From Candidatus Woesearchaeota archaeon (GTDB lineage Archaea; Nanobdellota; Nanobdellia; SCGC-AAA011-G17; GW2011-AR18): a DNA stretch of 64,000 nt. Location of the stretch: positions 40,058-104,057 of the forward strand of contig JAGVZM010000003.1 of the NCBI GenBank assembly GCA_018302545.1, given 5' to 3'. A program made the position numbers and the translations under genes. Numbering within the stretch: the first letter of the stretch is position 1; each line of letters opens with the position of its first letter. Below, piece by piece: positions 674-60,416 of this stretch. The notes beneath the pieces are model-generated. The model was not told the DNA's origin. It saw only the letters and a program-made list of their open reading frames with translations, and searched no databases.

Positions 674-1347
674 TGTAAAGTAAACGTCACCAAATTTAGT
701 CCTAAAGGAAAAAATTAAATAGAAGGTTTGGTGAAACAAATTATTATAAATATGAACAATTTAAAGGCACCATTTATGAAACGAAGCTCAACAATATTTA
801 TTCAGGTAGTCATTGTGCTCATCGGCATCGGCGCTCTTGCCCTTATGCTTTGGGAACCTCACCTCGAGGGCAGGAATGTGCATGCCACACTTTTTGAAAT
901 TTACTTCAAAGATCCTTTTTTGGCGTATGAGTATATAGCGTCCATTGCGTTTTTCGTGGCGTTATATAAAGCGTTTAAATTGCTCGGATACATCGGGCAA
1001 AATAAGGTATTCTCGCAAGCGGCCGTGAATGCTTTGCGGACTATAAAATACTGTATGATATCTCTTATTGGTTTTATCGTGGGTGCAGAAGCCTACTTCT
1101 TTATAGCTGGAGGAGGTAAGGATGACATCGCTGGAGGCGTAATGATTGGTCTTTTAATGATTTTTTTCTCCGTCATAATCGCCACTGTGGCAACGGTGTT
1201 TGAAAGAGCCATATGCAAAAAGCAAAAACTTATATTTTTATAAATTAAATGAGGATTTTCTTATAAACAACTTTCATAAATTCATTAAGAACCTGAAATT
1301 TAAAAAACTACCTAAAATCATCAAAAATAAATGACGTTTACTTTACA
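674..1347. mobile_element. Inverted-repeat-bounded GC-rich mini-cassette carrying a DUF2975-like gene. It has 16-bp perfect terminal inverted repeats (TGTAAAGTAAACGTCA at 674-689, reverse complement at 1332-1347) and encodes no transposase.
   Basis: The perfect 16-bp inverted repeats were read directly. The enclosed ~640 bp is clearly GC-richer than the flanking DNA. Confidence 0.45.
728..1243 (+). CDS. Small multi-pass membrane protein, DUF2975-like
   Basis: Four predicted TM helices. About 45% GC against roughly 27% background. Topology resembles bacterial DUF2975 proteins. Confidence 0.45.
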   Translation: MVKQIIINMNNLKAPFMKRSSTIFIQVVIVLIGIGALALMLWEPHLEGRNVHATLFEIYFKDPFLAYEYIASIAFFVALYKAFKLLGYIGQNKVFSQAAVNALRTIKYCMISLIGFIVGAEAYFFIAGGGKDDIAGGVMIGLLMIFFSVIIATVATVFERAICKKQKLIFL

Positions 1348-1394
1348 GATCACAAATTACTAATATTTATATAGTCTTATAATATTATCAATAA

Positions 1395-2345
1395 TTGAAA
1401 ATTAAGATGAAAAAAATAACAAATACTGTATTTATAATTTTGTTTCTTGTAATATTCACTATACCTATATTTGCTGAGGATTCTATCAATAACGAATTTT
1501 CTAATGACTGTCTTACAGTAAAAGGAGGAGACGGTTCTTATTGGCTATGTGAGAGAGGTGTATTCTTGCACAATAAAAAAATGGCATTTATAGTTGAAGA
1601 AATTTCAGAAGACATAGTTAAAATAAGAGTAGATGATTCAAAAATTAGAATTAGTTTTACTAATACCTCAGAATTTGGACAAGAATCAAAGTTCGATTAT
1701 ATTGATGTAAAATATAAAATAACCTTTGAAGGTCTTGATAATAACAATACAAAAGTAAGACTAACTATAAATTCAATTACAGGAAAAGAATTAAAACAAA
1801 ATCTGCAAGTTCAAGAATGTAAACCTGGAGAAAGACGTTGTATTGATACAGCTGGAAATTTGAAGTATTCCCAACAAAATACTCAAGGATATTATGGGAT
1901 GCATAAAATATGTTGTGGTGATAATTCAAATTATGATTATAGTCCTGTTTGTGGAGATTTAAGTGGAGTTTGGAAAGATTGGCAACCCGTACCATCCTGT
2001 TCAGAAAATAAAGAAAAAACATCTAACCAAGAAGAAAAAGATGAAGAAAAACAAACAAAAGAATCAAATTCTAAAAAAATAGAAGAAAAATGTAATGGTT
2101 GTAAACAAAATGAAGTTTGCCTTCCAATAGGAACAAGATTAACTGAAGAAAATAAACCAAGATATTGCGATATTGACTTAAATATAAAAGAACAAAAAAC
2201 AAACAGTCAAAATTGCCAAAATAATTACGAATGTTCAACAAATCAATGTAGTAATAATGAGTGTGTAAATCTAACAGAAGAATTAAAAGAAACAAGAAGT
2301 CTTATACAAAAATTATTTGACTTATTAAGTAAGATTTTCGGTTAA
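1395..2345 (+). CDS. Secreted cysteine-rich protein of unknown function, with signal peptide
   Basis: N-terminal hydrophobic signal. Many Cys in CxxC and C-x-C arrangements and a K/E-rich linker. Confidence 0.5.
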   Translation: MKIKMKKITNTVFIILFLVIFTIPIFAEDSINNEFSNDCLTVKGGDGSYWLCERGVFLHNKKMAFIVEEISEDIVKIRVDDSKIRISFTNTSEFGQESKFDYIDVKYKITFEGLDNNNTKVRLTINSITGKELKQNLQVQECKPGERRCIDTAGNLKYSQQNTQGYYGMHKICCGDNSNYDYSPVCGDLSGVWKDWQPVPSCSENKEKTSNQEEKDEEKQTKESNSKKIEEKCNGCKQNEVCLPIGTRLTEENKPRYCDIDLNIKEQKTNSQNCQNNYECSTNQCSNNECVNLTEELKETRSLIQKLFDLLSKIFG

Positions 2346-2354
2346 ATTATATCT

Positions 2355-3700
2355 TCTAGTTCGCAATAACACTCTACTCCTTTAGGTCTGAGTGAATTGC
2401 GAAAATATATTCTCCAATATGTCTCTTATAGAACAATGGTGGACGACACGACAAGGGATACGCGCGTAGAACTTATAAACTAAAATTCCTAAATAATTCT
2501 AATGTTAAAAACTTACAAATTCAGAATATATCCAAACAAAAAACAAGAGATAAAACTATTAGAAACTCTAAATCTTTGTAGGTTCACCTACAATAAACAA
2601 TTAGAACTAAAGATAAACAAATATAAAGAAAATAAAGTAAATTTAACACAATTTGATCTAAATAATAACTTAATAATACTAAAAGAAGAAAATAAAGAAT
2701 TAAAACAAATTCATTCTCAAACATTACAAGATATAAATAAAAGAATTAGTTTAGCTTTTAATGGATTTTACAGAAGATTAAATAAAAGAGAACAAGTAGG
2801 TTTTCCTAGATTCAAAAGTAAATATAGATATGATTCAATAACATATCCTCAATCTGGATTCAAATTAGAAAATCAGCTTTATATTTCTAAAATAGGACAA
2901 ATAAATATTATTAAACACAGAGAAATAGAAGGTAAAGTTAAAACCTTAACAATTAAGAAAACTTCTACAAACAAATGGTTTGCATGTTTCTCAGTAGAAC
3001 AAGAAAGTAAGAGTCACTCTAATCTAACAAATGAAGAAACAATTGGAATAGATCTAGGAATAAATCACTTTTATGCAGATTCTAATGGAAATCTAGTAGA
3101 TAATCCAAAATATCTAAGAAAATCAGAGTTAAAGTTAAAGAAATTACAAAGAAAACATTCTAAAAAGTTAAAAGGTTCTAATAATAGAAATAAATCTAGA
3201 TTAAAACTAGCTAATCTACATGAATTAATAAGTAATCAAAGAAATGACTTCTTACATAAACAATCAAGACAATTAGTTAATAATTATAATACAATAGTAG
3301 TAGAAAGATTACAAATAAGTAATATGACTAAAAACCACTATTTAGCTAAATCTATAAATGATGCTTCTTGGAATAAGTTTCTACAACTACTTTCTTACAA
3401 AGTGGAAGAGACTGGTGGAAAGTTAGTAGAAATAGATCCAAGAAATACTAGTCAATTATGTATTTGTGGCAATAAAGTAGAAAAATCATTAGCTACTAGA
3501 GTGCATAGATGCAATAATTGTGGAATAGAAATGGATAGAGATCTTATGTCTGCTTTGATTATTAAGGAAAAGGGAATAAATGATTTTAGTATTATTACCG
3601 TAGGAACTACGGGAATTCAAGCCTGTCAGAGAACTTCAATAGAAGTTCAGTGAAGCAGGACGCTCGGTCCCTTTAGGGCCGAGTAGTTCACATAAAAAGA
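2355..3700 (+). mobile_element. IS200/IS605-family insertion sequence, TnpB-only (IS1341-like), about 1.35 kb
   Basis: Left-end hairpin TTCGCAAT(2360-2367)...ATTGCGAA(2396-2403). Right-end hairpin CTCGGTCCCTTTAGGGCCGAG (3663-3683). Both ends share the motif CCTTTAGGnCnGAGT. The ends are GC-richer than the background. Confidence 0.65.
2502..3653 (+). CDS. tnpB: TnpB (OrfB), RNA-guided nuclease of IS200/IS605 family
   Basis: N-terminal YKFRIYPNKKQ motif. RuvC-like segments (IGIDLGI, VVERLQIS). C-terminal zinc finger CICG...CNNCG. Confidence 0.85.
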   Translation: MLKTYKFRIYPNKKQEIKLLETLNLCRFTYNKQLELKINKYKENKVNLTQFDLNNNLIILKEENKELKQIHSQTLQDINKRISLAFNGFYRRLNKREQVGFPRFKSKYRYDSITYPQSGFKLENQLYISKIGQINIIKHREIEGKVKTLTIKKTSTNKWFACFSVEQESKSHSNLTNEETIGIDLGINHFYADSNGNLVDNPKYLRKSELKLKKLQRKHSKKLKGSNNRNKSRLKLANLHELISNQRNDFLHKQSRQLVNNYNTIVVERLQISNMTKNHYLAKSINDASWNKFLQLLSYKVEETGGKLVEIDPRNTSQLCICGNKVEKSLATRVHRCNNCGIEMDRDLMSALIIKEKGINDFSIITVGTTGIQACQRTSIEVQ

Positions 3701-3710
3701 TAAATACTTA
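3500..3710 (+). ncRNA. Candidate omega-RNA (reRNA) overlapping the tnpB 3' end and the right-end hairpin. The guide would extend into flanking DNA.
   Basis: Inferred from known TnpB/omega-RNA architecture. Right-end hairpin at 3663-3683. Confidence 0.3.
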
Positions 3711-3736
3711 AGTAGTAATTATATATTTGAAATTAT

Positions 3737-4300
3737 ATGAGTATATTTACTAAAAACAAGGTGGTTATAGTCCACGGTTGTACTTCTGATAAAAATGATT
3801 TAACTTTTAATAAACATTGGATGCCCTGGCTTAAAAAAGAATTAGAAAAATTAAATTTTAAAGTTAAAATACCTAAAATGCCAGAAACTTGGAAGCCAAA
3901 CTATAATAAATTCAAAAAAGAATTTGAAAAGAATAAAATAGATGAAGATACTATATTAATTGGACATAGTTGTGGCTGCGCTTTTATAGTTCGTTGGCTT
4001 GGAGAAACAAAACAAAAAATTAAGAAATTAATATTAATTGCCCCTTGGAAAATTTATGATAAGGATGACAAAATCAGAAAAGAATTTTATAATTATAAGA
4101 TTGACGAAAATATAAAAAAGAGAGTTAAAGAAATTATAATGTTTACTTCTAATAATGAGGAAGAAGATGGCAAAAAAAGCCTAAAGATCTTTCAAAAAGA
4201 GTTAGGCGGTAAAATTATAGAACTAAAAAATAAAGGGCACTATGCATTTGAAGATATGGGTTCAGAGGAATTTCCAGAATTATTAAAAGAGATTATATAA
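3737..4300 (+). CDS. alpha/beta-hydrolase, YdeN/RBBP9-like serine esterase
   Basis: GHSCG nucleophile elbow (GxSxG), about 187 aa. Confidence 0.5.
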   Translation: MSIFTKNKVVIVHGCTSDKNDLTFNKHWMPWLKKELEKLNFKVKIPKMPETWKPNYNKFKKEFEKNKIDEDTILIGHSCGCAFIVRWLGETKQKIKKLILIAPWKIYDKDDKIRKEFYNYKIDENIKKRVKEIIMFTSNNEEEDGKKSLKIFQKELGGKIIELKNKGHYAFEDMGSEEFPELLKEII

Positions 4301-4305
4301 ATAAT

Positions 4306-7035
4306 TTATCTCCTAAAACCCATTCTAGGACCAATTTTTCTAGGACTCTTAATTTCTCTAATAACTGAATCTATTTGGTTATCTCTCCAACCTTTAGATT
4401 TCAAGGCAATCTTTATTTTGCCTTCATTCAATCCCTTATTTAAAGAATTTTGTACAAACATCTTTAATGATTGATGATCCCTTTCAGTTTTAAACAAACC
4501 GCCACCAAAAGATCCTGAAACTGATGAAACAACCTTCCCAAATTTCTTATTCAAAAAACCACCTTTAAAGAACAATCCAAAATAAATTATAATTCCAATT
4601 ACAATAACAGCGACACCAATTAAAATGAATAGGAAAGTATTACCTTTTTTACAATCTTTAGGGCAACTAAGTTCATCTTCATCCTCTTCACAGAAATTAT
4701 TTCCACATTCACTTAATATTTCCACTTCGCCGTTTTTAGTAGTAGACTTATCTACCTCAACACTTTCTAAATCTGCAGGTAACACTGCCGTTCTTGCTTG
4801 TAGGGCTTTATTTAAATCTGTAGTATCTAACTTGTAAGCTATTTCATTTGAATATGCAAAACTATAAACTCCAGAAGCTGCATTAGTAATATTTCCCCCC
4901 TTAAAGACATCATCATTTCCTATTGAAAATCCAAAAGGTAAAAATTCATAAATTTTATTCCCATCACCATTTATAATTTTTTTAATGACTGTATATTCCT
5001 CTTTACTTCCATCAATATACTGTAAGTTCACAACCCTAGCTTCAAAATTCACATTTACATTTTTTTGAGCAGTTAGTAATTTAGTTCTTTGTAATTCTGT
5101 CGTAAACTCACAACAAGATTTAATTTGGTTTAATCCATTTATTTTTCCACCATCATTAAAATTAGAGCTATCTACATTAAAACTAATTGGTATTTTTGAG
5201 GATATAAATCCGGCTTGGCTTAATAAAGGAGCAATTAAACCATTTTTTTGTTGATCAGTTAAAGTAGCATTATTATTTATTCTATCAAATTTATTTTTTA
5301 TATCTGTTAGATTAGCTTCAAAATTATTTAATTTAGAATTTAATCCTATTAAATCAGCTGTATCTTTAACCTTTTCATTACCTTTTCTCAAATTATCTTT
5401 AAATAAACTCAAAGAACTTAAAGTAGTATTAATTATATTTCCACTTCCGCTGCTATCATTGCCAATTTCTATAAATACTTTATCAACATCAATCAAGCCT
5501 TCACTATCTTTAACTTTTAATTTTATCTCATAAACTCCAATTTTAGTATAGGTATAAGTCACAACTGGACCATTTCCTGTTTTTCCATCTCCAAAATCCC
5601 ATGTATAATTAATAATATTTCTTCCAAGAGGAGCAGTACTTGCACTTGCATCAAAAGTAACTAATTCTCCCTTTCCAGGTTTAAATGGATCAATTGTAAA
5701 AAATGCTACTGGAGCATCTACGACTTCAAATTTAGTTTTATTCGTTCTGCTTCCATTAAATTCAACATAAAATTCATAATCATTATCTTTTTCTTTCGGA
5801 GTAAGTACTGTATTTAATGACTCTAAATTTATGTTTACTAATCTATCATATTTTAAAGCTTCAGGAACATGGTTTATTTTCTTAAATTGTCTTTCTGTTG
5901 CAGAACTACCCCCTACTAAATATCTAAAGAATAAATTAGTTATCTTAACATCTCCACCACTACCAACTGTAAAATTAAGAGGCATAACTAAACTTCCAGA
6001 ATCACTCATATAATTATCAATATCCTCTTTTTTTATTTCAACTTGTTTTATATTACTAGGACCAACATTCAAGGCTTTATTATAAGTCATATACTGTCCA
6101 AAAATATAAAAATTCCTATTAAATTGGTTTTCTGCTCCATTAAAAAAAGAATTTTTAGGCTGTGTTGCTTTTGTTTTAATATCAAAATAATCTGTACTAT
6201 CTTCATTCGCGTTTGTTGGGTAAACACAGAAGTATAAAGGTTTATCTTCAGGAATATTCTTTATAATATCACAATCAACTTCTCTCATAGAATTACTTAA
6301 TCCATTAAGAGTACAACAAGGTGTTTCTTCTTGGCAAGCTTGATCTGAATCTCCCAAAACTTCCTCACTAATTGTAGCATTTAATCCAACATTAGGATCA
6401 CTAACCTTTTTCTGAGCAAAAACTTTAACTTTATATTTTCCAGAAGAATTAACATTAATTAATTGACACAAAACACTATTTCCTGTTATGCCCTGAGTTC
6501 CTTCAGTTCCAGAATCTGTAATATGTTTATTACTTAAATCAATAAAACCAGTTTCTCCACCCCTATATTCATAAATTTTTTTCTCCCCTAAATATATAGC
6601 TAGATCTCTCACGTTCCTTCCAATAGCTTCGACATCAAAAGTGAAATTAGTTACATCAACATCTCCAGAAGAAAAACCATTGCCACTTAAATCAACACCA
6701 ACCTCTATTTTAGAACCACCAGAAGAATTAAATTCTAATATTCCATTAGAATTTCCAACAGGACCAAAAGTAGCAGGAACTATATTATTTCCTTTATACA
6801 AATCTGCAGCCTGAAATAATTGCTTTAAAGTAACTTTATTATCTGAATCCCCATTATAAAAAATAACTTCAGAATTAGATGGAATATTTCCAGAGAAATT
6901 AAATTTAAAATAACCATCAAATGTATTATCAGGCCCATATTTTGTTCTTGTTAAATTAGTATCAACAAAAACATTTGCAAAAACAAAATTGCTTAATAAA
7001 ACAATAAATAAAACAATAAATAATCCTCTTTTCAT
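4306..7035 (-). CDS. Large cell-surface (S-layer-like) protein with PKD domain and C-terminal TM anchor
   Basis: Signal peptide. PKD-like segment (TWDFGDGKTG...YTYT). Cys-rich stalk, one C-terminal TM helix and a short basic tail. Confidence 0.55.
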   Translation of the reverse strand: MKRGLFIVLFIVLLSNFVFANVFVDTNLTRTKYGPDNTFDGYFKFNFSGNIPSNSEVIFYNGDSDNKVTLKQLFQAADLYKGNNIVPATFGPVGNSNGILEFNSSGGSKIEVGVDLSGNGFSSGDVDVTNFTFDVEAIGRNVRDLAIYLGEKKIYEYRGGETGFIDLSNKHITDSGTEGTQGITGNSVLCQLINVNSSGKYKVKVFAQKKVSDPNVGLNATISEEVLGDSDQACQEETPCCTLNGLSNSMREVDCDIIKNIPEDKPLYFCVYPTNANEDSTDYFDIKTKATQPKNSFFNGAENQFNRNFYIFGQYMTYNKALNVGPSNIKQVEIKKEDIDNYMSDSGSLVMPLNFTVGSGGDVKITNLFFRYLVGGSSATERQFKKINHVPEALKYDRLVNINLESLNTVLTPKEKDNDYEFYVEFNGSRTNKTKFEVVDAPVAFFTIDPFKPGKGELVTFDASASTAPLGRNIINYTWDFGDGKTGNGPVVTYTYTKIGVYEIKLKVKDSEGLIDVDKVFIEIGNDSSGSGNIINTTLSSLSLFKDNLRKGNEKVKDTADLIGLNSKLNNFEANLTDIKNKFDRINNNATLTDQQKNGLIAPLLSQAGFISSKIPISFNVDSSNFNDGGKINGLNQIKSCCEFTTELQRTKLLTAQKNVNVNFEARVVNLQYIDGSKEEYTVIKKIINGDGNKIYEFLPFGFSIGNDDVFKGGNITNAASGVYSFAYSNEIAYKLDTTDLNKALQARTAVLPADLESVEVDKSTTKNGEVEILSECGNNFCEEDEDELSCPKDCKKGNTFLFILIGVAVIVIGIIIYFGLFFKGGFLNKKFGKVVSSVSGSFGGGLFKTERDHQSLKMFVQNSLNKGLNEGKIKIALKSKGWRDNQIDSVIREIKSPRKIGPRMGFRR

Positions 7036-45195: not shown

Positions 45196-46308
45196 TCATT
45201 TAAATTTAGCAAATTCTTTAATTTTATCAAGTAAACTTTTTTTCTCTTCAGTTTTTTGTAAATCTTTAAACAATTTTTTTTGTTGAGAACTTAATTTTTT
45301 AGGTGTAAAAACATTAACAATCACATACAAATCTCCTCTACCATATCCATCAACATAAGGTACTCCCTTTCCTTTAAGTCTAAAATTAGTCCCACTTTGT
45401 GTTCCAGAAGGGATCTTTATATTAACTTCATTATCTAAAGTAGGAACTTTTATTTCATCACCTAAAGCAGCTTGGCTAAAAGTAATTGGCACGTATAATT
45501 GCAGGTCATTACCTGTTCTTTCAAATATATCACTAGGCTTAACCTTTAAAATAACATATAAATCTCCAGAAATACCACCCCTCATTCCAGCTTCACCAGC
45601 TCTAGGAATTCTTAATCTAGAACCATTATCAACCCCTTTAGGAATTTTAACTTTAACTGTTTTAATTTTACTTAATCTTCCAGTACCATTACATGCTTTG
45701 CATTTATTTTTAATTTGTTTTCCTTCTCCCCCACAATCACTACAACTACTTACACTAGAAAAAACACCAAAAGGAGTTCTCCTATTCATTCTAACTTGGC
45801 CTGTTCCTTCACAACTTGGACAAACTTCTAATTTGCCATCTGAACTTCCTGTCCCATCACAATCCTCGCAAGTATCTAAGATATTTATTTCTATATCTTT
45901 AATAACACCAAATACTGCCTCTTCAAAATCTATCTCTAATTCATAAGCTAAATCTCTACCTCTGTTTTGCCTTCTCCTACTGCTTCCGCCTCCAAAAAAA
46001 GATTCAAAAGGATCTCCTCCGCCAAATATATCCCCAAAAATATCTCTGAAATCAAAATTCCTAAAAATATCTTCTTGGCTATATTTTTGATGGAATCCTG
46101 CATCACCAAATTGATCATATTTTGTTCTTTTCTGGTCATCACTTAGAACAGCATAAGCTTCAGATATATCCTTAAACTTATTAGCTGCCTCAGGATTATC
46201 AGGATTTCTATCAGGGTGATGTTCCATAGCTAGTTTCCTATAAGCTTTTTTAATTTCATCTTTACTAGCACCCTTCTCTACTCCTAAAGTTTTATAATAA
46301 TCACTCAT
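45196..46308 (-). CDS. dnaJ: Chaperone DnaJ
   Basis: J-domain with HPD. G/F region. Four CxxCxGxG repeats. Confidence 0.9.
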   Translation of the reverse strand: MSDYYKTLGVEKGASKDEIKKAYRKLAMEHHPDRNPDNPEAANKFKDISEAYAVLSDDQKRTKYDQFGDAGFHQKYSQEDIFRNFDFRDIFGDIFGGGDPFESFFGGGSSRRRQNRGRDLAYELEIDFEEAVFGVIKDIEINILDTCEDCDGTGSSDGKLEVCPSCEGTGQVRMNRRTPFGVFSSVSSCSDCGGEGKQIKNKCKACNGTGRLSKIKTVKVKIPKGVDNGSRLRIPRAGEAGMRGGISGDLYVILKVKPSDIFERTGNDLQLYVPITFSQAALGDEIKVPTLDNEVNIKIPSGTQSGTNFRLKGKGVPYVDGYGRGDLYVIVNVFTPKKLSSQQKKLFKDLQKTEEKKSLLDKIKEFAKFK

Positions 46309-46733
46309 CTAAACATCCCTATCAACATCGGTTTTGTATAATCATAAACAGTAAATCTAGATCCTATATTTAACCTTTCTTCTTGACATCTAACAAAATC
46401 ATAAAAAGTTCTAACCAAATCTCCTGCTCTTTGTAAATGTTCTAAATCAGGATTTTTTATATAATTACAAACAGATCTGCATAAAGCTCTTCTAATTCTA
46501 TTCCTTTTCTCTTGGCTTTCACCTAATTCTCTTAAATAATCAACTGCTTCTTCAACATAAGTGGCTAAATTTGTTATAGCTTTATTATCTATACCAAAAG
46601 CATCAAATTCTAAAACAAAAGATTTCCTGCCTAAAAATTTGCTTTCATTTGCATCTAAAAAAGAAATAAATCTATCAACAAGTTCTCTATCATCTGAAAA
46701 TTCAGCCTTTGCAAGAGCTTCTTTAAATTTCAT
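46305..46733 (-). CDS. Hypothetical protein inserted between dnaK and dnaJ
   Basis: ORF only. Overlaps dnaJ start. Confidence 0.45.
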   Translation of the reverse strand: MKFKEALAKAEFSDDRELVDRFISFLDANESKFLGRKSFVLEFDAFGIDNKAITNLATYVEEAVDYLRELGESQEKRNRIRRALCRSVCNYIKNPDLEHLQRAGDLVRTFYDFVRCQEERLNIGSRFTVYDYTKPMLIGMFR

Positions 46734-46759
46734 AATAAAAAATGAAAGGTTATAACCTC

Positions 46760-47125
46760 CTATCTCAATTTACTTTTAGCTTCTATCAATATCTGTTCAC
46801 ATTCATCATTAGGGTCACATAACTCTAGTTTTCCATCTAAACCATTATCAACTACCCTGCCTTCTCTAGCAAATCTAGAAGTATCAATTTTCCTTTTGAA
46901 TAAGATTACTAAGGAATCTTCTTTTCCAAAATTGCCTTTTGGCATTTCATCAGTAAAAATTACTTCTGTTTCATTACCAAATTTATAACTTCGTGAATAG
47001 ACCTCGCCCATTGTTATTTGATATGGTGAACCATTTTCATTCACATATTTAGCAATGTCCTTAATATAATAATTATTGGTACAACCAAAGACCCCAATTA
47101 ACGCTAAAGCGAGTAGTCTATTCAT
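46760..47125 (-). CDS. Small lipoprotein-like protein
   Basis: Signal sequence with Cys. Confidence 0.4.
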   Translation of the reverse strand: MNRLLALALIGVFGCTNNYYIKDIAKYVNENGSPYQITMGEVYSRSYKFGNETEVIFTDEMPKGNFGKEDSLVILFKRKIDTSRFAREGRVVDNGLDGKLELCDPNDECEQILIEAKSKLR

Positions 47126-48993
47126 TACTTATCTTCCTCATCATCTACAATTTCAGCATCAACAACTTTTTCTTTTCCACCATTCTTCTTGTCTTTTTTA
47201 ATTTCTCCATCTTTGGCTTCTTTTTCTTGCTTCATGGCATCTTGATACATTTTTGTAGACATTTCATGTATCTTAGTATTAATTTCATCTATCTTTTTCT
47301 TCAATTTATCTATTTCTTTATTTTTAATTAAGTCTCTAATTTCATTCTTCTCTTTCTCGATCTCAGAAATTTTATCTTTGTCTAATTTATCTCCAAAATC
47401 TTTTACACTTTTATCAATTGTATAAACTAAACTCTCAGCTTGGTTTATTACTTCAATTTCTTCTTTCTTCTTTTTATCTTGATCTGCATATTTTTCAGCT
47501 TCTTTTCTCATTCTATCAATTTCTTCTTTATCTAATTTAGTAGATCCAGAGATCCTAATATTTTGTTCTTTTCCAGTGGCTTTATCTTTAGCACCTACAT
47601 GTAAAATTCCATTTGCATCTATATCAAAAGTAACTTCAATTTGGGGAATTCCTCTAGGAGCAGGTGGAATGCCCATTAAATCAAATTTACCTAAGCTTTT
47701 ATTATCTGCAGCCATCTCTCTTTCACCTTGTAAAACATGAATAGTTACAGCTGTTTGATTGTCATCTGCAGTGCTAAATATCTGGCTTTTTTTAGTAGGC
47801 ACAGTAGTATTCCTATCTATTAATGAAGTTCTAACTCCTCCCAGAGTTTCAATACCAAGAGTTAAAGGAGTCACATCTAGTAATAATATATCTTTAACTT
47901 CGCCCCCTAAAACCCCAGCTTGAACCGAAGCCCCCATAGAAACACATTCCATAGGATCTACTCCTCTCTCAGCTTTAGCATTTAATAAATCCTCAACAAA
48001 CTTTTTAACCATTGGAATTCTTGTTGGACCACCAACTAAGATTACTTTATCAACTTCGCCAACTTTTAGACCTGCATCTTTCAAAGCTTGTAAGACTGGT
48101 TTCTTACATCTTTGGACTATTGAGTCTATTAATTCTTCTAATTTAGATCTTGTTAATCTTAATTGTAAATTATTTTGCTCATGTATAAAAGGCAGATTAA
48201 TATCTGTTTCCATCACAGTACTCAATTCTATCTTTGCTCTTTCACTTGCTTCTCTAATTCTTTGTAATGCAACTTGATCATCATTTAGATCAATTCCCGT
48301 CTCTTTCTTAAATTGGTCAATAACAAAATTCATAAGAGTAACATCCATATCTGTTCCACCAAGTTGAGTATCCCCAGATGTAGACTTAACTTCAAAAACG
48401 CCTCCTCCAAAATCCATAACAGTAACATCTAAAGTACCACCACCAAGATCAAAAACTAAAATTTTAGCCTCTTGATCTTGCTTGTCTAAACCATAAGCTA
48501 AAGAAGCAGCTGTAGGCTCATTAACAATCCTTACAACTTCTAAACCAGCTATCTCACCAGCATCTTTAGTTGCTTGTCTTTGATCATCATTAAAATAAGC
48601 TGGAACAGTAATAACAGCCTTCTCAACTTTTTCTCCTAAAAATTCTTCAGCATCTTTCTTTATTTTTTGCAGAATAAAAGCACTTATTTGTTGAGGTGTA
48701 AACTCTTTACCATGAACCTTATATTTAAAATTAGTACCTATCTTTCTTTTTGCAGCTATAATTGTGCCTTGAGGATTAGAAACAGCTTGTCTTCTAGCTG
48801 GTTCACCTACCAACATATTCCCATCTTTAGTAAAAGCAACCACACTTGGAAATGCTTTTCCATATAAACTAGTTCCTTCAGCACTAGGAATCATAACTGG
48901 TCTTCCTGCTTGCAAAACACTCGCAGCAGAATTTGATGTACCTAAATCTATACCTATAATTTTACTCATTTTTTTTACCTCCGTAAATATCAT
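47125..48993 (-). CDS. dnaK: Chaperone DnaK (Hsp70). The true start is probably the internal [11 protein letters not shown] at 48969.
   Basis: [16 protein letters not shown], canonical Hsp70 along the full length. Confidence 0.95.
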
Positions 48994-49159
48994 TTAATTT
49001 ATTTGCTAATCTCTTCTTTTTTGCAGCAAATTCTCTTCTATTCTTTAATGCAGCACATTTATGTTTAATATAATCTTGTTCAAAATAAAAAAATCTTCTA
49101 CATAAAGGACATTGAAAGGGTGTCCCCAAATTTGTTGATTCAACAATTGTTACGCTCAT
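48962..49159 (-). CDS. Small C2HC zinc-finger protein
   Basis: [19 protein letters not shown]. Confidence 0.35.
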
Positions 49160-49303
49160 TTTTTATATAAATTACCCCCTCTTGAATAATTGAACATAGG
49201 TTGAAATACCGTTTTATAACTAATATTACTAGGACTATACATATTTGATTTACTTATACAATATTTTGTCCCGCTTCCTTCATTTCCATGAGCATTGCAC
49301 ATT

Positions 49304-49549
49304 TTATTCAAAATCCTCCCCTAAATATCTTTTTCTCAAGACACTTCCTACTTGATCTATTGTTAAATCAGGTCTTTGATTTCTTAAACCATCACCAATT
49401 TCTACAATTTCTGAAACAGTAGAGTCATAATTTAATTCGTCTATCCTTCCCATGATTATCATTTCCCTAACTATTGGAATAGCTATATAAGCCGCAGTGT
49501 AAACATCAGTTAATCCTTTAATTCCATATCTATTCATTTTTTCCTCCAA
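49304..49549 (-). CDS. Hypothetical protein between grpE and dnaK
   Basis: ORF only. Confidence 0.4.
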   Translation of the reverse strand: MEEKMNRYGIKGLTDVYTAAYIAIPIVREMIIMGRIDELNYDSTVSEIVEIGDGLRNQRPDLTIDQVGSVLRKRYLGEDFE

Positions 49550-50036
49550 CTTTACTTATTCTAACTTTACTAGGCCTCAAAACTTTATTTTTTAGTATAT
49601 ATCCTCTTTGAATTTCATGAACCACAACATCCTCTTCTTCACCATTTATCATATCTATCACTTCATGTTTATATGGGTCAAATTTTTGACCATGAGACTG
49701 AATAATTTCTAATCCTTCTTCTTTTAAGGTCTTATGAAATTGATCCTCAATCATTTTAACACCTTTTAAAGTCTCTTCATCCTTTATTACTTCTATAGCT
49801 TTCTGAAAGCTATCAGCAACAGTCAATAATTTAGTAATTAATTTATGATTTGAAAAATTGACAAATTCTTGTTTCTCTTTTTCAGTTCTCTTCATATAAT
49901 TTTCAAATTCAGCCTGGAGTCTTCTCAAAGTATCCAAATATTCAACAAGTTGTTTTTCTTGTTCTTCAAGCCTTTTTTTAAGCTCTTGCTCTTGCGTTGA
50001 TTTTTCTTCAACTTTTTTATTCATATTAAACTCCAC
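49530..50036 (-). CDS. grpE: Nucleotide exchange factor GrpE
   Basis: Coiled-coil N-terminus and GrpE C-terminal beta-domain (RPSKVRISK). Confidence 0.85.
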   Translation of the reverse strand: MEFNMNKKVEEKSTQEQELKKRLEEQEKQLVEYLDTLRRLQAEFENYMKRTEKEKQEFVNFSNHKLITKLLTVADSFQKAIEVIKDEETLKGVKMIEDQFHKTLKEEGLEIIQSHGQKFDPYKHEVIDMINGEEEDVVVHEIQRGYILKNKVLRPSKVRISKVGGKNE

Positions 50037-50612: not shown

Positions 50613-52142
50613 ATGGGATTATTAAAAAGTTTAGAAAATGCACTCTTTAATGCAGCTGATAAATTAGAGTCAAATCCAGTTGTAAATAGAAGAGCCCTTT
50701 TACAAGGTGCAGCTGCAACTGCAGGAGCTGTAACTTTAATATCAAAACTGAGAGAATCAACAGCAGCAGAACCAAAATGGGATGTTTCTTATATGTGGCA
50801 TACAGATATAGACTCTGTTCTAGATTATCAAGAAGTTATAGGTCAAAAGTTAGGTCCAGAAGTAGAAAAAGAATTGCATGTTGTAAGAGGTAGATCAGGA
50901 AATTACGGTTTAATATATGATAGAAATGGAACTAAAGAAGAGGCAGAAAAAACTGCAAAAAATCACCAGAGAATACTAAAGAGAATAGGTTTAGAAGAAG
51001 CAACACCAATTCAAGATGAAGGATATTCTAAGCTTTATAACGTGGTTTATGGAAAAGGTCCAAATTTACAACAACTAAAGGGAGATTATAAAATTGTATA
51101 TAGAACATTAGGAATAGGAGTAGGAAAAGATTTAGTAATAGAAAGAATAAATGGAGACTACGCCTTAGTTTGGAGAAGAAGAGGAGATCTAGATTCAACA
51201 TTTGATATAGCAAGAGGACACGCACAAATTCTGAAAAAAGAAAATATAGAAGCATCAGTAATAACAGAAAATAATAATCCTACAGTTTTTGGAGAATCAA
51301 GCCATTTAGATGAAGATATTCCAGTAAAAAAATTAAGAGCAAAAAGACAAAAACCAAAACTGAATAATCTAGAATTAGAAATTGAAACCTTAATAGGAGA
51401 TTTAAGAAAAAAAGGATTAATTGAAGAGGATGAAGTAACTGCCTGGTCTGTTTATGATTTCACAACAGGAGAGAAATTAGTTTCTATTAATGAAGATGTT
51501 CCATTACAATGTGCAAGTATGGTCAAACCATTAGTGGCTTTAGCATTTTTCGATCAAGTAAAAAAAGGAAATCTAAGTTACACATCCAAAGCAAGAATGC
51601 ATATGGAAAGAATGATTCAAAAAAGTAGCAATTCTTCTACAAATTGGGTAATTGATAGATTAGGTGGCCCAGGCCAAGTTCAAAAAACATTAAAAGATTG
51701 TTATGGTAATGTTTGTCAGCAAACAAATGTTGTAGAAAGAATACCTGGAGGTGGAAGAACTTATAGAAATAAAGCATCAACACATGATTATAGCAGATTC
51801 TTGTATAATTTATGGAATAATAATTTACCTTACTCACAAGAAATAAAACGATTAATGGCTCTACCAGGAAGAGACAGGGTTTATACAGGAGCAAAAAAAG
51901 TTCCTGAAGGAACACTTGTTTATAATAAAACAGGAAGTACTGCTAGATTATGTGGAGATATGGGAATATTATATGCAAAAGGAAGAGATGGTGAAAGACA
52001 CGCTTATACTGTAGTAGGAGTAATACAAAAACAAAGAAAAACAAGAAGATATTTACCATGGATTGCATCAAGAGGTAATGTAATAAGAGAAGTTTCTAAT
52101 AAGGTCTATGAACATTTAAGACAAGTACATGATTTAGTTTGA
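50613..52142 (+). CDS. Tat-secreted protein with two SPOR-like peptidoglycan-binding repeats and a C-terminal serine beta-lactamase/PBP-like domain
   Basis: RRALLQGAAATAGA twin-arginine signal. SxxK (ASMVKP), SxN (SSN) and KTG (NKTGST) motifs. Confidence 0.6.
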   Translation: MGLLKSLENALFNAADKLESNPVVNRRALLQGAAATAGAVTLISKLRESTAAEPKWDVSYMWHTDIDSVLDYQEVIGQKLGPEVEKELHVVRGRSGNYGLIYDRNGTKEEAEKTAKNHQRILKRIGLEEATPIQDEGYSKLYNVVYGKGPNLQQLKGDYKIVYRTLGIGVGKDLVIERINGDYALVWRRRGDLDSTFDIARGHAQILKKENIEASVITENNNPTVFGESSHLDEDIPVKKLRAKRQKPKLNNLELEIETLIGDLRKKGLIEEDEVTAWSVYDFTTGEKLVSINEDVPLQCASMVKPLVALAFFDQVKKGNLSYTSKARMHMERMIQKSSNSSTNWVIDRLGGPGQVQKTLKDCYGNVCQQTNVVERIPGGGRTYRNKASTHDYSRFLYNLWNNNLPYSQEIKRLMALPGRDRVYTGAKKVPEGTLVYNKTGSTARLCGDMGILYAKGRDGERHAYTVVGVIQKQRKTRRYLPWIASRGNVIREVSNKVYEHLRQVHDLV

Positions 52143-57949: not shown

Positions 57950-58252
57950 TTATCTTTTATTAAACTCTTCTAAAGCCAATTTATAAGCATCTAATTCTGT
58001 TTTTTCTTCTCTTGACAATTCTCTTGATTGATGTTCAGCGCCTCCTAAAGTAAATGCCTCCAATTTACCAATTCTTCCTTGAATATCTAAAAATCCTAAT
58101 TGTCCTGATTGATTATAAGAGCCAAAAGAATCTGTACCAATTCTAGTTAAAAGTTCAGAAGCTTGTCTGTAATAGGTAGTATTTCTCAAATAATTATCTC
58201 TATCTCCCTCTCCCTGAATAATAACCAACTTTGGTTTTTTATCTTCTTCCAT
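57950..58252 (-). CDS. Hypothetical protein
   Basis: ORF only. Confidence 0.35.
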   Translation of the reverse strand: MEEDKKPKLVIIQGEGDRDNYLRNTTYYRQASELLTRIGTDSFGSYNQSGQLGFLDIQGRIGKLEAFTLGGAEHQSRELSREEKTELDAYKLALEEFNKR

Positions 58253-58293: not shown

Positions 58294-58329
58294 TCAATTC
58301 TTCCTATCAGCAATCTTCCATAAATATTA
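58294..58329. repeat. Left copy of a ~36-bp direct repeat duplicating the 3' end of the trmB-like gene. It encodes ...YLWKIADRKN*.
   Basis: TCAATTCTTCCTATCAGCAATCTTCCATAAATATTA versus 58839-58874 TTAATTTTTCCGATCAGCAATTTTCCATAAATATTC. Confidence 0.6.
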
Positions 58330-58389
58330 AAGATTAAATAATATAATCAAAAAAGTAAATTATTTAAATCCTTAAGTATAATTAGAATT

Positions 58390-58563
58390 ATGACAACTGA
58401 AACCCAACAAATACTAGCAGAATTGAAAGCAATAAGATCAGAACTTGATTTTATTAAAGGGCATATTGTAGATCTTGACCTTGTACTTACAGATGCAGAT
58501 TTAAAAACATTAGATGAATCTGAAAAAGAGTTGCAACAAGGAAAGACAAAGAGGCTGGTATAA
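58390..58563 (+). CDS. Antitoxin of a RelE/ParE-type toxin-antitoxin pair (57 aa, not in the ORF track)
   Basis: Manual translation MTTETQQILAELKAIRSELDFIKGHIVDLDLVLTDADLKTLDESEKELQQGKTKRLV. Stop lies 2 nt before the toxin TTG start. Confidence 0.5.
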   Translation: MTTETQQILAELKAIRSELDFIKGHIVDLDLVLTDADLKTLDESEKELQQGKTKRLV

Positions 58564-58565
58564 AT

Positions 58566-58841
58566 TTGTCTTATCAAGTACATCTTTCTAAAAATGCAGA
58601 TGAATTCTTAGAAAAATTAGATAAACACCTAAATGAGAGAATCAAAAAGCGATTAATAAAGCTGGCAGAGAATCCAATACCAACTGATGCAAAATTCATC
58701 ACACGTGATAAATCAGAAGATAAAATTTTTCGATATAGGATTGGAGAATATAGAGCACTTTATAAGATAAAAGAAAAAGAAAGGATTGTTCTTATTGCTG
58801 AGATTGACAAAAGACCAAGAATATATGATAAAATTAATTAA
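58566..58841 (+). CDS. relE: RelE/ParE-family toxin
   Basis: YRIGEYRALYKIKEKERIVLIAEIDKRPRIY matches the RelE C-terminal signature. Confidence 0.7.
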   Translation: MSYQVHLSKNADEFLEKLDKHLNERIKKRLIKLAENPIPTDAKFITRDKSEDKIFRYRIGEYRALYKIKEKERIVLIAEIDKRPRIYDKIN

Positions 58842-59590
58842 TTTTTCCGATCAGCAATTTTCCATAAATATTCAAAATGATTTTTATAAGTTTCAGCTAT
58901 ATCTTTATTTTTAATCATAATTGCAGTTATAGGATTTCCCCAAGTAACAATAACAACTTTATCCCCATAAACAAAGGTATTTGTTGGATTAAAATCTTTA
59001 GCTTCCAAAAACCTATATTCTGTATTAGGTGCAACATCTTTATCAAATAAAAATACATCTTTGCTTTTTACAGTTATAATTCTTTCATTTATTTTATTAT
59101 TTCTCAAATCTCTAAAATATTGCTTCATAAAAATAGGTAAAGCTTCTTCATATTTTTTATCTTCTATGCCTGTAACTAAAACATCTTTTTCAGTTTTAAT
59201 AATGTCTTTAAGAAAATATTTCAAACCTTCACTGCCTCTAAAAACTTCAACAAAAGTATCTTCTCTAGGTAATTTCATAAATGATTCTAATTCTGGAAGA
59301 ATCTTCTCAAAATCTTTTTCTTGTTCATCTAAAATTCTTTTCTTTTCATCTAAATATTGTTTAATTTTTGAAGGATGAACTGCTTGAAAATGTTTCTTTG
59401 CTCCTTTTAAAACAGTTGTTACTAAGCCTTTTTCAATTAATTGTTCCAATTTATCATAGACATGTACCCTATAAATCCTAGTTCTATTAGAAATTTCATA
59501 AGCAGAACTAAGTCCTGATTTTAATAAATCTAAATATATTTTTATCTCATTATCAGTAAGCCCTAATTTTCTTAACACAGTATCATCCAT
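58838..59590 (-). CDS. TrmB-family transcriptional regulator (second copy)
   Basis: LTDNEIKIYLDLLKSGLSSAYEISNRTRIYRVHVYDKLEQLIEKGLV. Confidence 0.7.
   Translation of the reverse strand: MDDTVLRKLGLTDNEIKIYLDLLKSGLSSAYEISNRTRIYRVHVYDKLEQLIEKGLVTTVLKGAKKHFQAVHPSKIKQYLDEKKRILDEQEKDFEKILPELESFMKLPREDTFVEVFRGSEGLKYFLKDIIKTEKDVLVTGIEDKKYEEALPIFMKQYFRDLRNNKINERIITVKSKDVFLFDKDVAPNTEYRFLEAKDFNPTNTFVYGDKVVIVTWGNPITAIMIKNKDIAETYKNHFEYLWKIADRKN
58839..58874. repeat. Right copy of the ~36-bp direct repeat. This is the authentic 3' end of the trmB-like gene.
   Basis: See the left copy. About 31 of 36 positions are identical. Confidence 0.6.
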
Positions 59591-59699
59591 ATTATTCTAA
59601 TCTATTATTTCTTTATATATTTTTCGTACTAATTTGGTACGACAATATTTTAAGTATATTATATGTTTACTACTATTAAGTCAAAAATCGGAGGAAAAA

Positions 59700-60416
59700 A
59701 TGAAAGCAGAAAAACAATTTGTAGAAAAACTAAACAAAGCAATGATTGAAGATTTTGTTGCTGTAAACAAAAAAAGAAATCCAATAGCAAAAAACCTTGC
59801 TAAAGATATGAAAGCACTTCAATATGTAATAGGGCAATATTCAATATTTCCAAAAAACATTGTGAGTTTCTTAGAATTTGCTAAAAACAAAGCAAAAGAA
59901 ATGAATTGGAAAAATGTTGAAGAAGAAATAATTAGAAACATGGGTGAAGAATTAGGATCAAAATCTAATGGAATAACACATTATGACCTTTTAGTAAATG
60001 GTGTAAAAGAAGAATTAGGTTTAGATATAAGTAATATCCAAATATCAGAATCAACAAAAAATTTCATAGAATCAATGAAGTCTATCTTATCTAATAAAAA
60101 TCCTTATTATATTATGGGTGCAACTTATGCATTAGAAGATTCAGCAGTTCCTGAGTTAGCTTTAGTTGTAGAATGGGTAAGTCATTTATTCATAGAAATA
60201 ACTGGAAAACCAATTCAAGATAAGACCTTGAAATTTTTCTTTGACATGCACTTAGGTGTATGGGAACCAGGACATGAAGAAGGACTTAGAAATACAGTAT
60301 TTGAAAAAATATCTAGCGAAGAAGATAGAGATAACTTTGAAGCAGGATTCAGAGAAGTACTAAAAACAATGGACTTTTGGTGGAATGGTTTGTATAATGA
60401 AGCAAGTCAAAATTGA
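59700..60416 (+). CDS. Heme-oxygenase-like/TenA-like multihelical protein (iron-containing redox enzyme family?). Start placed at the internal ATG preceded by GGAGG.
   Basis: The all-helical impression is weak. SD GGAGG lies 6 nt upstream of ATG 59700. Confidence 0.35.
   Translation: MKAEKQFVEKLNKAMIEDFVAVNKKRNPIAKNLAKDMKALQYVIGQYSIFPKNIVSFLEFAKNKAKEMNWKNVEEEIIRNMGEELGSKSNGITHYDLLVNGVKEELGLDISNIQISESTKNFIESMKSILSNKNPYYIMGATYALEDSAVPELALVVEWVSHLFIEITGKPIQDKTLKFFFDMHLGVWEPGHEEGLRNTVFEKISSEEDRDNFEAGFREVLKTMDFWWNGLYNEASQN

Follow-up and report, generated by a model that had tools for sequence, protein, structure and literature searches.

A minimal toxin-antitoxin cassette between two copies of a trmB-like gene end in a Woesearchaeota archaeon, and its relatives at other gene ends

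Toxin-antitoxin (TA) loci are among the most mobile genes of prokaryotes, and most of their chromosomal copies have no transposase or integrase. How they move without mobility genes is a long-standing question, and it is raised in compact form by a locus on the chromosome of a Woesearchaeota (DPANN) archaeon, where a TA cassette of about 500 bp (promoter, antitoxin and toxin, about 58335-58841) lies between two copies of the 3' end of a convergent trmB-like regulator gene. We analyzed this locus within a 64-kb stretch of the 186-kb contig JAGVZM010000003.1 (hereafter the window, to which coordinates refer unless a related locus is named), which is AT-rich (~27% G+C around the cassette; GenBank locus tags in the region J4216_0257x-0259x), together with a family sample of 80 metagenomic loci obtained from a scan with the toxin alignment. 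An initial annotation, made from the letters of the sequence, had described a mobile RelE-type TA module and the footprint of its site-specific or target-duplicating insertion. The TA module itself is ordinary and its toxin is already named in GenBank (RelE/ParE family toxin, MBS3167984.1); the new part is the family-wide pattern of unrelated sites, locus-specific repeats and arrays, of which the window is one clear example.

To describe the borders of the cassette, we searched the window for direct repeats. The strongest one within the entire 64 kb pairs 58296-58334 with 58840-58878 (39 nucleotides (nt), 34 of 39 identical, spacing 544 nt); in register the copies span 58294-58334 and 58838-58878, that is 39-41 nt, where the initial annotation had seen imperfect repeats of about 36 bp. 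A 27-mer of the repeat, allowing up to 3 mismatches, occurs at only two sites in the 64 kb, with 0 matches expected from 100 shuffles. Both copies were read on the minus strand. The right copy (58838-58878) reads ...HFEYLWKIADRKN followed by the stop codon and forms the working 3' end of the trmB-like gene (FEYLWKIADRKN, then stop). The left copy (58294-58334) reads L-stop-YLWKIADRKN-stop, laid out as TAA, YLWKIADRKN and TGA, so it does encode the gene end in frame after a stop, as first annotated, and is a displaced, non-functional copy of the last 11 trmB-like codons. Four differences fall within YLWKIADRKN and its stop codon (AAG/AAA, AGG/CGG, AAG/AAA and TGA/TAA) and all four are silent (p=0.0005-0.004), the encoded protein being 100% identical over the C-terminal end. 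From the open reading frame (ORF) listing and our reading of the sequence, the 505-nt insert between the repeats holds only a promoter and the two TA genes.

The gene that supplies the repeat (58838-59590, minus strand) encodes a 250-amino-acid protein of the TrmB family (Pfam PF01978, E=1.3e-15). We retrieved 393 homologues at E<=1e-10; the 120 listed are 67-73% identical, besides the window's own protein (100%), and orthologues were found in metagenome-assembled genomes of Woesearchaeota and Nanoarchaeota. The motif FE(Y/H)LWKIA is conserved, in an end of the same length, in 12 cassette-free orthologues (for example ...FEHLWKIAEKKN and stop). Because these orthologues share the C-terminal motif, the right repeat is native, as the initial annotation had it, and the left repeat is the extra copy. 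The locus structure recurs in three further assemblies (SRR2090155, ERZ27254845 and SAMN03842431), identical or with 2 single-nucleotide polymorphisms outside the structure, and this recurrence in independent assemblies excludes an assembly artefact.

We then characterized the two genes of the insert. The toxin gene (58566-58841, plus strand, 91 amino acids) starts with TTG 2 nt past the antitoxin stop codon and in the same orientation, where it had first been placed. Its product matches the Pfam profile PF05016 (ParE_toxin) over its full length (residues 5-87, E=1.8e-9, 38.5 bits; curated cut-off 23 bits) and a PHROG RelE-like toxin (E=1.8e-15). Searching the PDB with a 34-sequence toxin profile recovered RelE of T. 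thermophilus (2KHE), aRelE of P. horikoshii (1WMI_A, E=1.4e-6), RelG of M. tuberculosis (Rv2866) and RelE of E. coli. An AlphaFold2 model (predicted local distance difference test (pLDDT) 91.7) has the order strand-helix-helix-four strands, and its best Foldseek match is again 1WMI_A (template modelling score (TM) 0.81/0.84, root-mean-square deviation 2.1 A, 25% identity). RelE proteins fill the top 11 places among the PDB fold matches, RelE structures leading with E from 1e-6 to 6e-4 and ParE structures following from 34th place down (E>0.02). The window toxin keeps 23 of the 23 invariant columns of the 34-sequence family alignment, which shows FRYRxG and KRPRxY as invariant or almost invariant motifs; R56, R58, R83 and Y87 are among the conserved residues. 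Taken from sequence and model, the protein belongs to the RelE/ParE superfamily and is probably of the archaeal RelE type, closest to aRelE, and the proposed RelE assignment is borne out by Pfam, PHROG and PDB profile matches as well as by the fold, on which the initial annotation had staked it. TTG and GTG starts are common across the toxin family alignment. The C-terminus of the window toxin is 3-4 residues longer than in most relatives because its frame runs into the trmB stop codon, the two convergent stop codons overlapping by 4 nt.

The upstream ORF (58390-58563, plus strand, 57 amino acids, ATG start, TAA stop at 58561-58563) was found in the ORF listing exactly where the initial annotation had drawn an antitoxin. 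Its product combines a coiled-coil-like helix at the N-terminus with an acidic segment at the C-terminus (LTDxD..EAEKDLKxGKTKRL), and the family, with members of 55-58 amino acids, shares the core ..LDYIKxH..D.D.VLTDDD.ESLKEAEKDLKxGKTKRL. Since 76 of the 80 related loci have a homologue (37-68% identical) immediately ahead of the toxin homologue, we take the ORF to be a real partner gene; its position and co-conservation point to a neutralizing role. In a search of 1.8 billion proteins, at least 150 cluster representatives matched the antitoxin at E<=1e-3. Profile searches, which the initial annotation had proposed for placing the antitoxin in a family, returned no named one in Pfam, NCBIfam, PADLOC, PHROGs or PDB profiles (sub-threshold Pfam DUF6284 and coiled-coil noise only); the family is conserved yet unnamed. 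The archaeal RelE-RelB pair of P. horikoshii (aRelE/aRelB, PHS013/PHS014, 1WMI) resembles the window pair in toxin fold, in its tight operon and in having a small upstream antitoxin with no recognizable DNA-binding domain; the difference lies in the window antitoxin, which no solved or named antitoxin detectably resembles in sequence.

Upstream of the antitoxin we read a predicted promoter (58350-58368, plus strand), made of an A-rich stretch resembling a B recognition element (BRE) at 58350-58359 and a TATA box, TTATTTAAA, at 58360-58368. The 21 nt from the end of the TATA box to the antitoxin ATG imply a leaderless or near-leaderless mRNA. A (C)CGAAA-TTTATAAA/TATTTAAA motif at about -35 to -22 was seen by eye in most of 60 related cassettes, and an automated TATA score placed its best position at -27 to -35 from the antitoxin ATG in 37 of the 60. 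We infer that the motif is the cassette's own archaeal promoter, driving a self-sufficient and probably leaderless operon. Read in this way, the segment is shown to be an autonomous cassette with the gene organization of a type II TA module, consisting of a predicted promoter, a 57-amino-acid antitoxin and a 91-amino-acid RelE-type toxin.

To assess whether this cassette moves, we compared the window with the loci of the family sample, thereby seeking the same cassette elsewhere as the initial annotation had proposed. The two-gene cassette was found in dozens of unrelated chromosomal contexts, with members measuring ~480-560 bp from promoter to stop codon and usually adjoining the end of a protein, tRNA or rRNA gene. 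Several pairs have similar cassettes and unrelated flanks: L060 and L088 are 91.5% identical over 496 nt, L071 and L100 are 88% identical over 483 nt, and the cassettes of L079, L082 and L090 are ~85% identical over 504-563 nt. In such pairs homology begins at the BRE/TATA motif or up to ~50 nt upstream of it and ends 13-45 nt past the toxin. Judged by these limits, the mobile unit is the promoter plus the two genes alone. Two cassettes in the sample begin ~45 nt past the 3' end of a tRNA gene, L111 (3687-3828) past tRNA-Thr and L095 (2555-2676) past tRNA-Arg, with no repeat detected at either.

We next quantified flanking repeats across the family by scoring, for each cassette, the best direct repeat without gaps that is shared by the 600 nt before it and the 500 nt after it, with a threshold score of at least 19. 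Such repeats flank 13 of the 42 non-redundant testable cassettes (31%) and 17 of 381 control positions (4.5%), an odds ratio of 9.6 (p=5e-7), the controls being pseudo-cassette positions taken from these loci; several of the control positions scoring at least 19 are themselves repeat-flanked cassettes or paralogues. A protein-level search for diverged displaced gene ends gave 27% versus 5.8% at a score of at least 45, with little gain over the DNA scan. The repeats measure 19-159 nt, are locus-specific, with sequences unrelated between loci, and fall in intergenic DNA or overlap gene ends. Their placement relative to the cassette is regular: counted from the toxin stop codon, right copies begin at -7 to +34 nt, in 14 of 18 loci a distance of 24-88 nt separates the end of the left copy from the antitoxin ATG, and the spacing is mostly 484-577 nt. 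Many are near-perfect (30/30 in L102, 27/28 in L086 and 42/45 in L040). Occurrence in dozens of unrelated contexts and the excess of flanking repeats mark the module as mobile, as had been claimed for the window, and the comparison of sequences points to the cassette itself as what moves.

A few observations concern individual repeats. The short core ATCAGCA is shared by the repeats of the window and L071 and occurs at no other locus, and was treated as a coincidence. No Rfam family was found under the repeats tested, and reading the L048 repeat as a tRNA end was not confirmed. In L103 (4281-6896) the right repeat adjoins the 3' end of an archaeal 23S rRNA gene that contains a group I intron (Rfam RF00028, 53 bits), and the first ~35 nt of this repeat are common to the 159-nt hairpin-rich repeat that flanks the related cassette of L052. 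L086 also holds, at 1019-1768, a single NYN/LabA-like gene (185 amino acids, minus strand) bracketed by a perfect 31-nt direct repeat that begins directly after the stop codon of a PadR-like gene; because this gene is bracketed in the same way, the repeat-flanked pattern is not confined to TA modules.

Six loci carry more than two repeat copies in the same orientation (nine in L071, four in L084 and three each in L086, L108, L110 and L072). In L071 (1-8252, contig Ga0307435_1000016, also L113 3000-10300), nine repeats of ~70-100 nt with the invariant core ATCAGCAGA.CTGCCCTTTA separate eight small cassettes, mostly TA (PemK/DUF7557 twice, ParE, PIN/MazE, TumE/HVO_A0114 and others). The array is flanked by a collagen-like gene and TspO, and no integrase or transposase was found within 17 kb around it.

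Locus L108 (2010-4330) presents, in order, an HD-domain gene, a metallophosphoesterase gene, a displaced HD gene end (~19 codons), a TA cassette and a second displaced copy, more diverged, of other extent and with an in-frame 15-nt deletion. The working HD gene ends in ...REKIMKVFLNELGKEIDGKDM, the copy after the metallophosphoesterase gene in ...RLMKQFLNELGKEIDGKDM and the copy after the TA cassette in ...KREKIMKLFLNELGKDL, each followed by a stop codon. Silent and conservative changes, one in-frame deletion and differing extents distinguish the three versions, and the arrangement looks like serial accretion of cassettes at one gene end.

For L084, two uninterrupted paralogues could be used as proxies of the empty site: the left copy leads into the native downstream flank and the right copy into the gene body. 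Because the flanks of both copies match uninterrupted paralogues, the repeat is host-derived. The gene-end copies SEVPYAYFRVRFS and SEVPYAYFRLTFS, each followed by a stop codon, differ at 9 nt but at only 2 amino acids (p=0.001-0.003, simulations); the working end reads ...YFRLTFS-stop and the displaced one ...YFRVRFS-stop, with Phe, Ser and stop specified by different synonymous codons. Within 1305-6944 of the same locus, three surface-protein-like paralogues, one of them cut to an 88-amino-acid C-terminal fragment beside the TA cassette, alternate with two large ATPase genes, an arrangement that suggests recombination among paralogous units around the cassette.

To account for these footprints we consider it on balance probable that the cassette arrived with its own copy of the neighboring gene end, integrated by homology and displaced the resident end. 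Each repeat copy would once have been a functional gene end in some lineage, most simply because every incoming cassette brought its own version of the neighboring end, recombined through it and moved the resident end outward. A dead duplicate is expected to collect mostly non-silent changes, and changes in the working copy could explain the whole set only if the dead copy had been frozen, so that the all-silent pattern is unexpected for one working and one dead copy, and the four silent differences out of four in the window are why a carried end is preferred to target duplication; L084 and L108 show the same allele-like pattern. Integration by homology is the more likely route because no site-specific recombinase and no conserved att core was found. 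The insertion mode first annotated therefore survives in part: att-like repeats fit if the cassette carried a gene end, and duplication of the target fits poorly with silent differences.

In this model the cassette would neither cut nor duplicate its target. It would move with a short piece of the adjoining gene, taken from a related donor genome or picked up beside a paralogue, and would integrate by ordinary homologous recombination through that piece, the intermediate being either a circle with one repeat copy or a linear fragment anchored by one-sided homology. At the window locus the imported end would now terminate trmB, and the resident end, pushed across the cassette, would be the left repeat. 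The host gene would stay intact and no dedicated recombinase would be needed, and recurrence at one gene end would give rise to arrays. Once in place, the cassette would be expected to be retained by addiction: the stable RelE-type toxin would cleave ribosome-bound mRNA if production of the labile antitoxin stopped, which would penalize loss of the cassette through recombination between the two repeats. A comparable entry is homology-facilitated illegitimate recombination of naturally transformable bacteria, in which a one-sided homologous anchor is combined with an illegitimate joint; it shares with the cassettes the entry beside a homologous anchor, the lack of a dedicated enzyme and the variable joints. 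This process is not known to be tied to a specific cassette family or to occur in archaea.

Several points weigh against a carried gene end. Two thirds of the cassettes have no detectable repeat. The argument from silent substitutions draws on four differences in the window and on two further loci, and many other repeats are near-perfect (0-2 mismatches), so that an end brought by the cassette and one newly duplicated would look alike. Homology alone does not account for a cassette reaching a gene end for the first time, a step that needs an illegitimate joint, and homologous recombination would have had very little length to work with in 39 nt at 87% identity. No empty site, that is a cassette-free relative of the window locus, was found among the genomes searched: TrmB-like orthologues in species-representative genomes (up to 72% identical) show neither synteny nor cassette nor repeat, and exact-protein look-ups with the toxin, the antitoxin, the left neighbor and the TrmB-like protein returned the same strain only. 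The insertion is accordingly deduced from the duplication and from the behavior of the family. Nor was a donor lineage with the cassette beside trmB found, the nearest toxin being 73% and the nearest antitoxin 68% identical.

The alternative that survives best, which we regard as unlikely though well worth weighing, is a strict long target duplication, in which a fragment with promoter and TA genes entered a staggered break at the trmB end, fill-in synthesis doubled ~40 nt and the copies diverged later. Insertion with long target duplication is described for restriction-modification (R-M) genes in bacteria (Nobusato et al. 2000, Gene 259:99; Furuta et al. 2010, PMC2853133), with variable repeats of at least 30 bp and up to ~400 bp that often span the stop or start of a gene; no archaeal case survived the screen of that survey, and its authors suggested DNA breakage by the restriction enzyme (PMC2853133). 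It is this footprint that the cassettes most resemble, sharing a small addictive unit, the lack of a mobility gene and long, variable, target-derived repeats near gene stops. Repeat lengths that vary and sequences that are unrelated from locus to locus agree with it, as do the near-perfect repeats of L102, L086 and L040, expected for recent duplications, and the window itself has repeats longer than 30 bp, two copies in 64 kb and no mobile-element genes in the insert. The copies do not, however, look like duplicates of one target made at insertion. A non-coding left copy should take any change, yet the window differences are silent without exception and the differences in L084 and L108 are allele-like, and a duplication cannot create the different and complete tail LTFS-stop of the working copy in L084; copies that differ like alleles argue that the gene end was carried in and not doubled in place. 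The cassettes also differ from the R-M cases in being a TA family of DPANN archaea, and an mRNA-cleaving RelE cannot break DNA in the way proposed for restriction enzymes. In the literature that we searched, mostly outside subscription journals, no paper applying long target duplication to TA cassettes was found.

Integrative elements that target the 3' ends of genes carry a replacement end in attP, so that the host gene stays intact and the displaced end becomes the repeat at the far border. A larger element of this kind, a provirus or an integrative plasmid with a tyrosine integrase that inserted at the trmB 3' end and of which the TA genes and the att sites were left, would explain silent differences through the gene-end copy that such elements often carry, and TA modules resist deletion. 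The window would share with these elements the replaced end, the displaced repeat and, in the family, tandem accretion at one site into arrays. It differs in the ~500-bp insert, in having no integrase in or near the cassette and in a repeat that changes at every locus, which does not suit an integrase of one specificity. Near-equal minimal spacing (484-577 nt), with no room for or trace of other genes, is seen at 13 or more independent loci, related cassettes share only the sequence from promoter to stop codon, and no toxin relatives were found on 2.9 million viral contigs of IMG/VR. We consider such a remnant very improbable.

An integron-type gene cassette, with attC-like repeats and an integron integrase encoded elsewhere, is hardly to be expected at this locus. 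Integron cassettes and integrase-less attC clusters (CALINs), including archaeal arrays rich in TA genes in Nanoarchaeota, have been reported (Ghaly et al. 2022, PMC9668308), and there are shared features: the cassettes are compact, often TA genes with their own promoter, their repeats are alike within a genome and differ between genomes, and several related loci are cassette arrays with a conserved repeat, as in the nine copies of L071/L113. The window, on the other side, has two repeat copies only, and its right copy codes for a conserved part of a housekeeping regulator. The window repeat has no RYYYAAC...GTTRRRY core pair, and both of its strands fold no better than shuffles (z from -0.5 to +0.8). 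The L071 repeat has the reversed arrangement 5'-GTT...AAC-3' and a weak hairpin without real covariation, and is not a canonical attC. Neither repeat thus qualifies as an attC site, no IntI was found in the scanned regions, and the window repeat is part of the host gene. attC sites also travel with their cassette, whereas the right-hand repeat stays behind (L071 versus L100).

Equally doubtful is an origin of the left copy as the remnant of a recent tandem trmB paralogue whose body was deleted or replaced by the cassette. Relatives do have tandem TrmB-like paralogues (L005, L006, L020 and L024), and such a history would explain silent differences; those paralogues are only 27-40% identical, whereas the left copy encodes a peptide that matches the resident C-terminus at 100%. 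The end-point of the deletion would also need to match the cassette boundary, and the same footprint at many other loci would be left unexplained. Finally, a DNA transposon or miniature inverted-repeat transposable element was rejected, as inverted matches between the two ends of the cassette do not exceed those of shuffles and the repeats, at 19-159 nt, have no fixed length, and so was a site-specific integrative element, with no integrase found in the scanned regions and the repeats of homologous cassettes unrelated between loci.

The surroundings of the locus were examined for mobility genes and signs of foreign origin. The G+C content of the cassette equals that of its surroundings, so no compositional sign of foreign origin was found. 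A protein-by-protein Pfam scan of ORFs of at least 90 amino acids, which covered the window from 44 kb onward (~14 kb on the upstream side of the cassette and the ~5 kb that follow it), found no integrase or transposase. No tRNA was found in the 64 kb. Neighborhood genes are housekeeping or of unknown function (dnaJ-dnaK-grpE, a protease, an RNase P subunit, NUDIX, GNAT and others). To the left lies a 100-amino-acid ORF (57950-58252, minus strand), an ORFan that retrieved only itself from 5.8 billion proteins and matched nothing in Pfam, PADLOC or PHROGs. The left repeat sits 42-82 nt upstream of this ORF, in its expected promoter position, and the GAA-to-TAA change there creates a TTTAATATTTAT stretch. 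Divergent from the trmB-like gene is a gene for a DUF3865/heme-oxygenase-like iron enzyme (59634-60416, plus strand, E=1.4e-58), a plausible regulatory target of the TrmB-like regulator. Further upstream, a bacterial-type chaperone cluster (45196-50036, minus strand; dnaJ, two small ORFs of unknown function, dnaK and grpE) is followed by two winged-helix regulators and a 509-amino-acid protein with a beta-lactamase-family domain (50613-52142).

Returning to the carried gene end, a wider and more tentative proposal, to which we give clearly less than even confidence, is that DPANN archaea harbor a recombinase-free, homology-driven counterpart of the integron, in which minimal transcription units travel attached to the final codons of a host gene. 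The units would be TA pairs together with single genes such as the NYN-domain and metallophosphoesterase genes, and recombination through the attached gene end would take them from genome to genome or from one paralogue to another. Every arrival would shift the resident end outward, and the arrays built by repeated arrivals would be cassettes set between fossil alleles of a gene end. If true, this would offer a general answer to how TA genes spread without a mobility gene.

Taken together, the sequences suggest that minimal TA cassettes and certain further small genes settle at the ends of genes in DPANN archaea without a recombinase. The cassette family gives a handle on the movement of TA loci that lack mobility genes, as it offers many independent natural insertion footprints, with minimal borders, locus-specific repeats, allele-like displaced ends and arrays, which make the question testable. 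It extends insertion with long target duplication from the R-M genes of bacteria to TA modules and to archaea, and suggests for them a different mechanism, in which the cassette would carry a gene end instead of entering a staggered cut.

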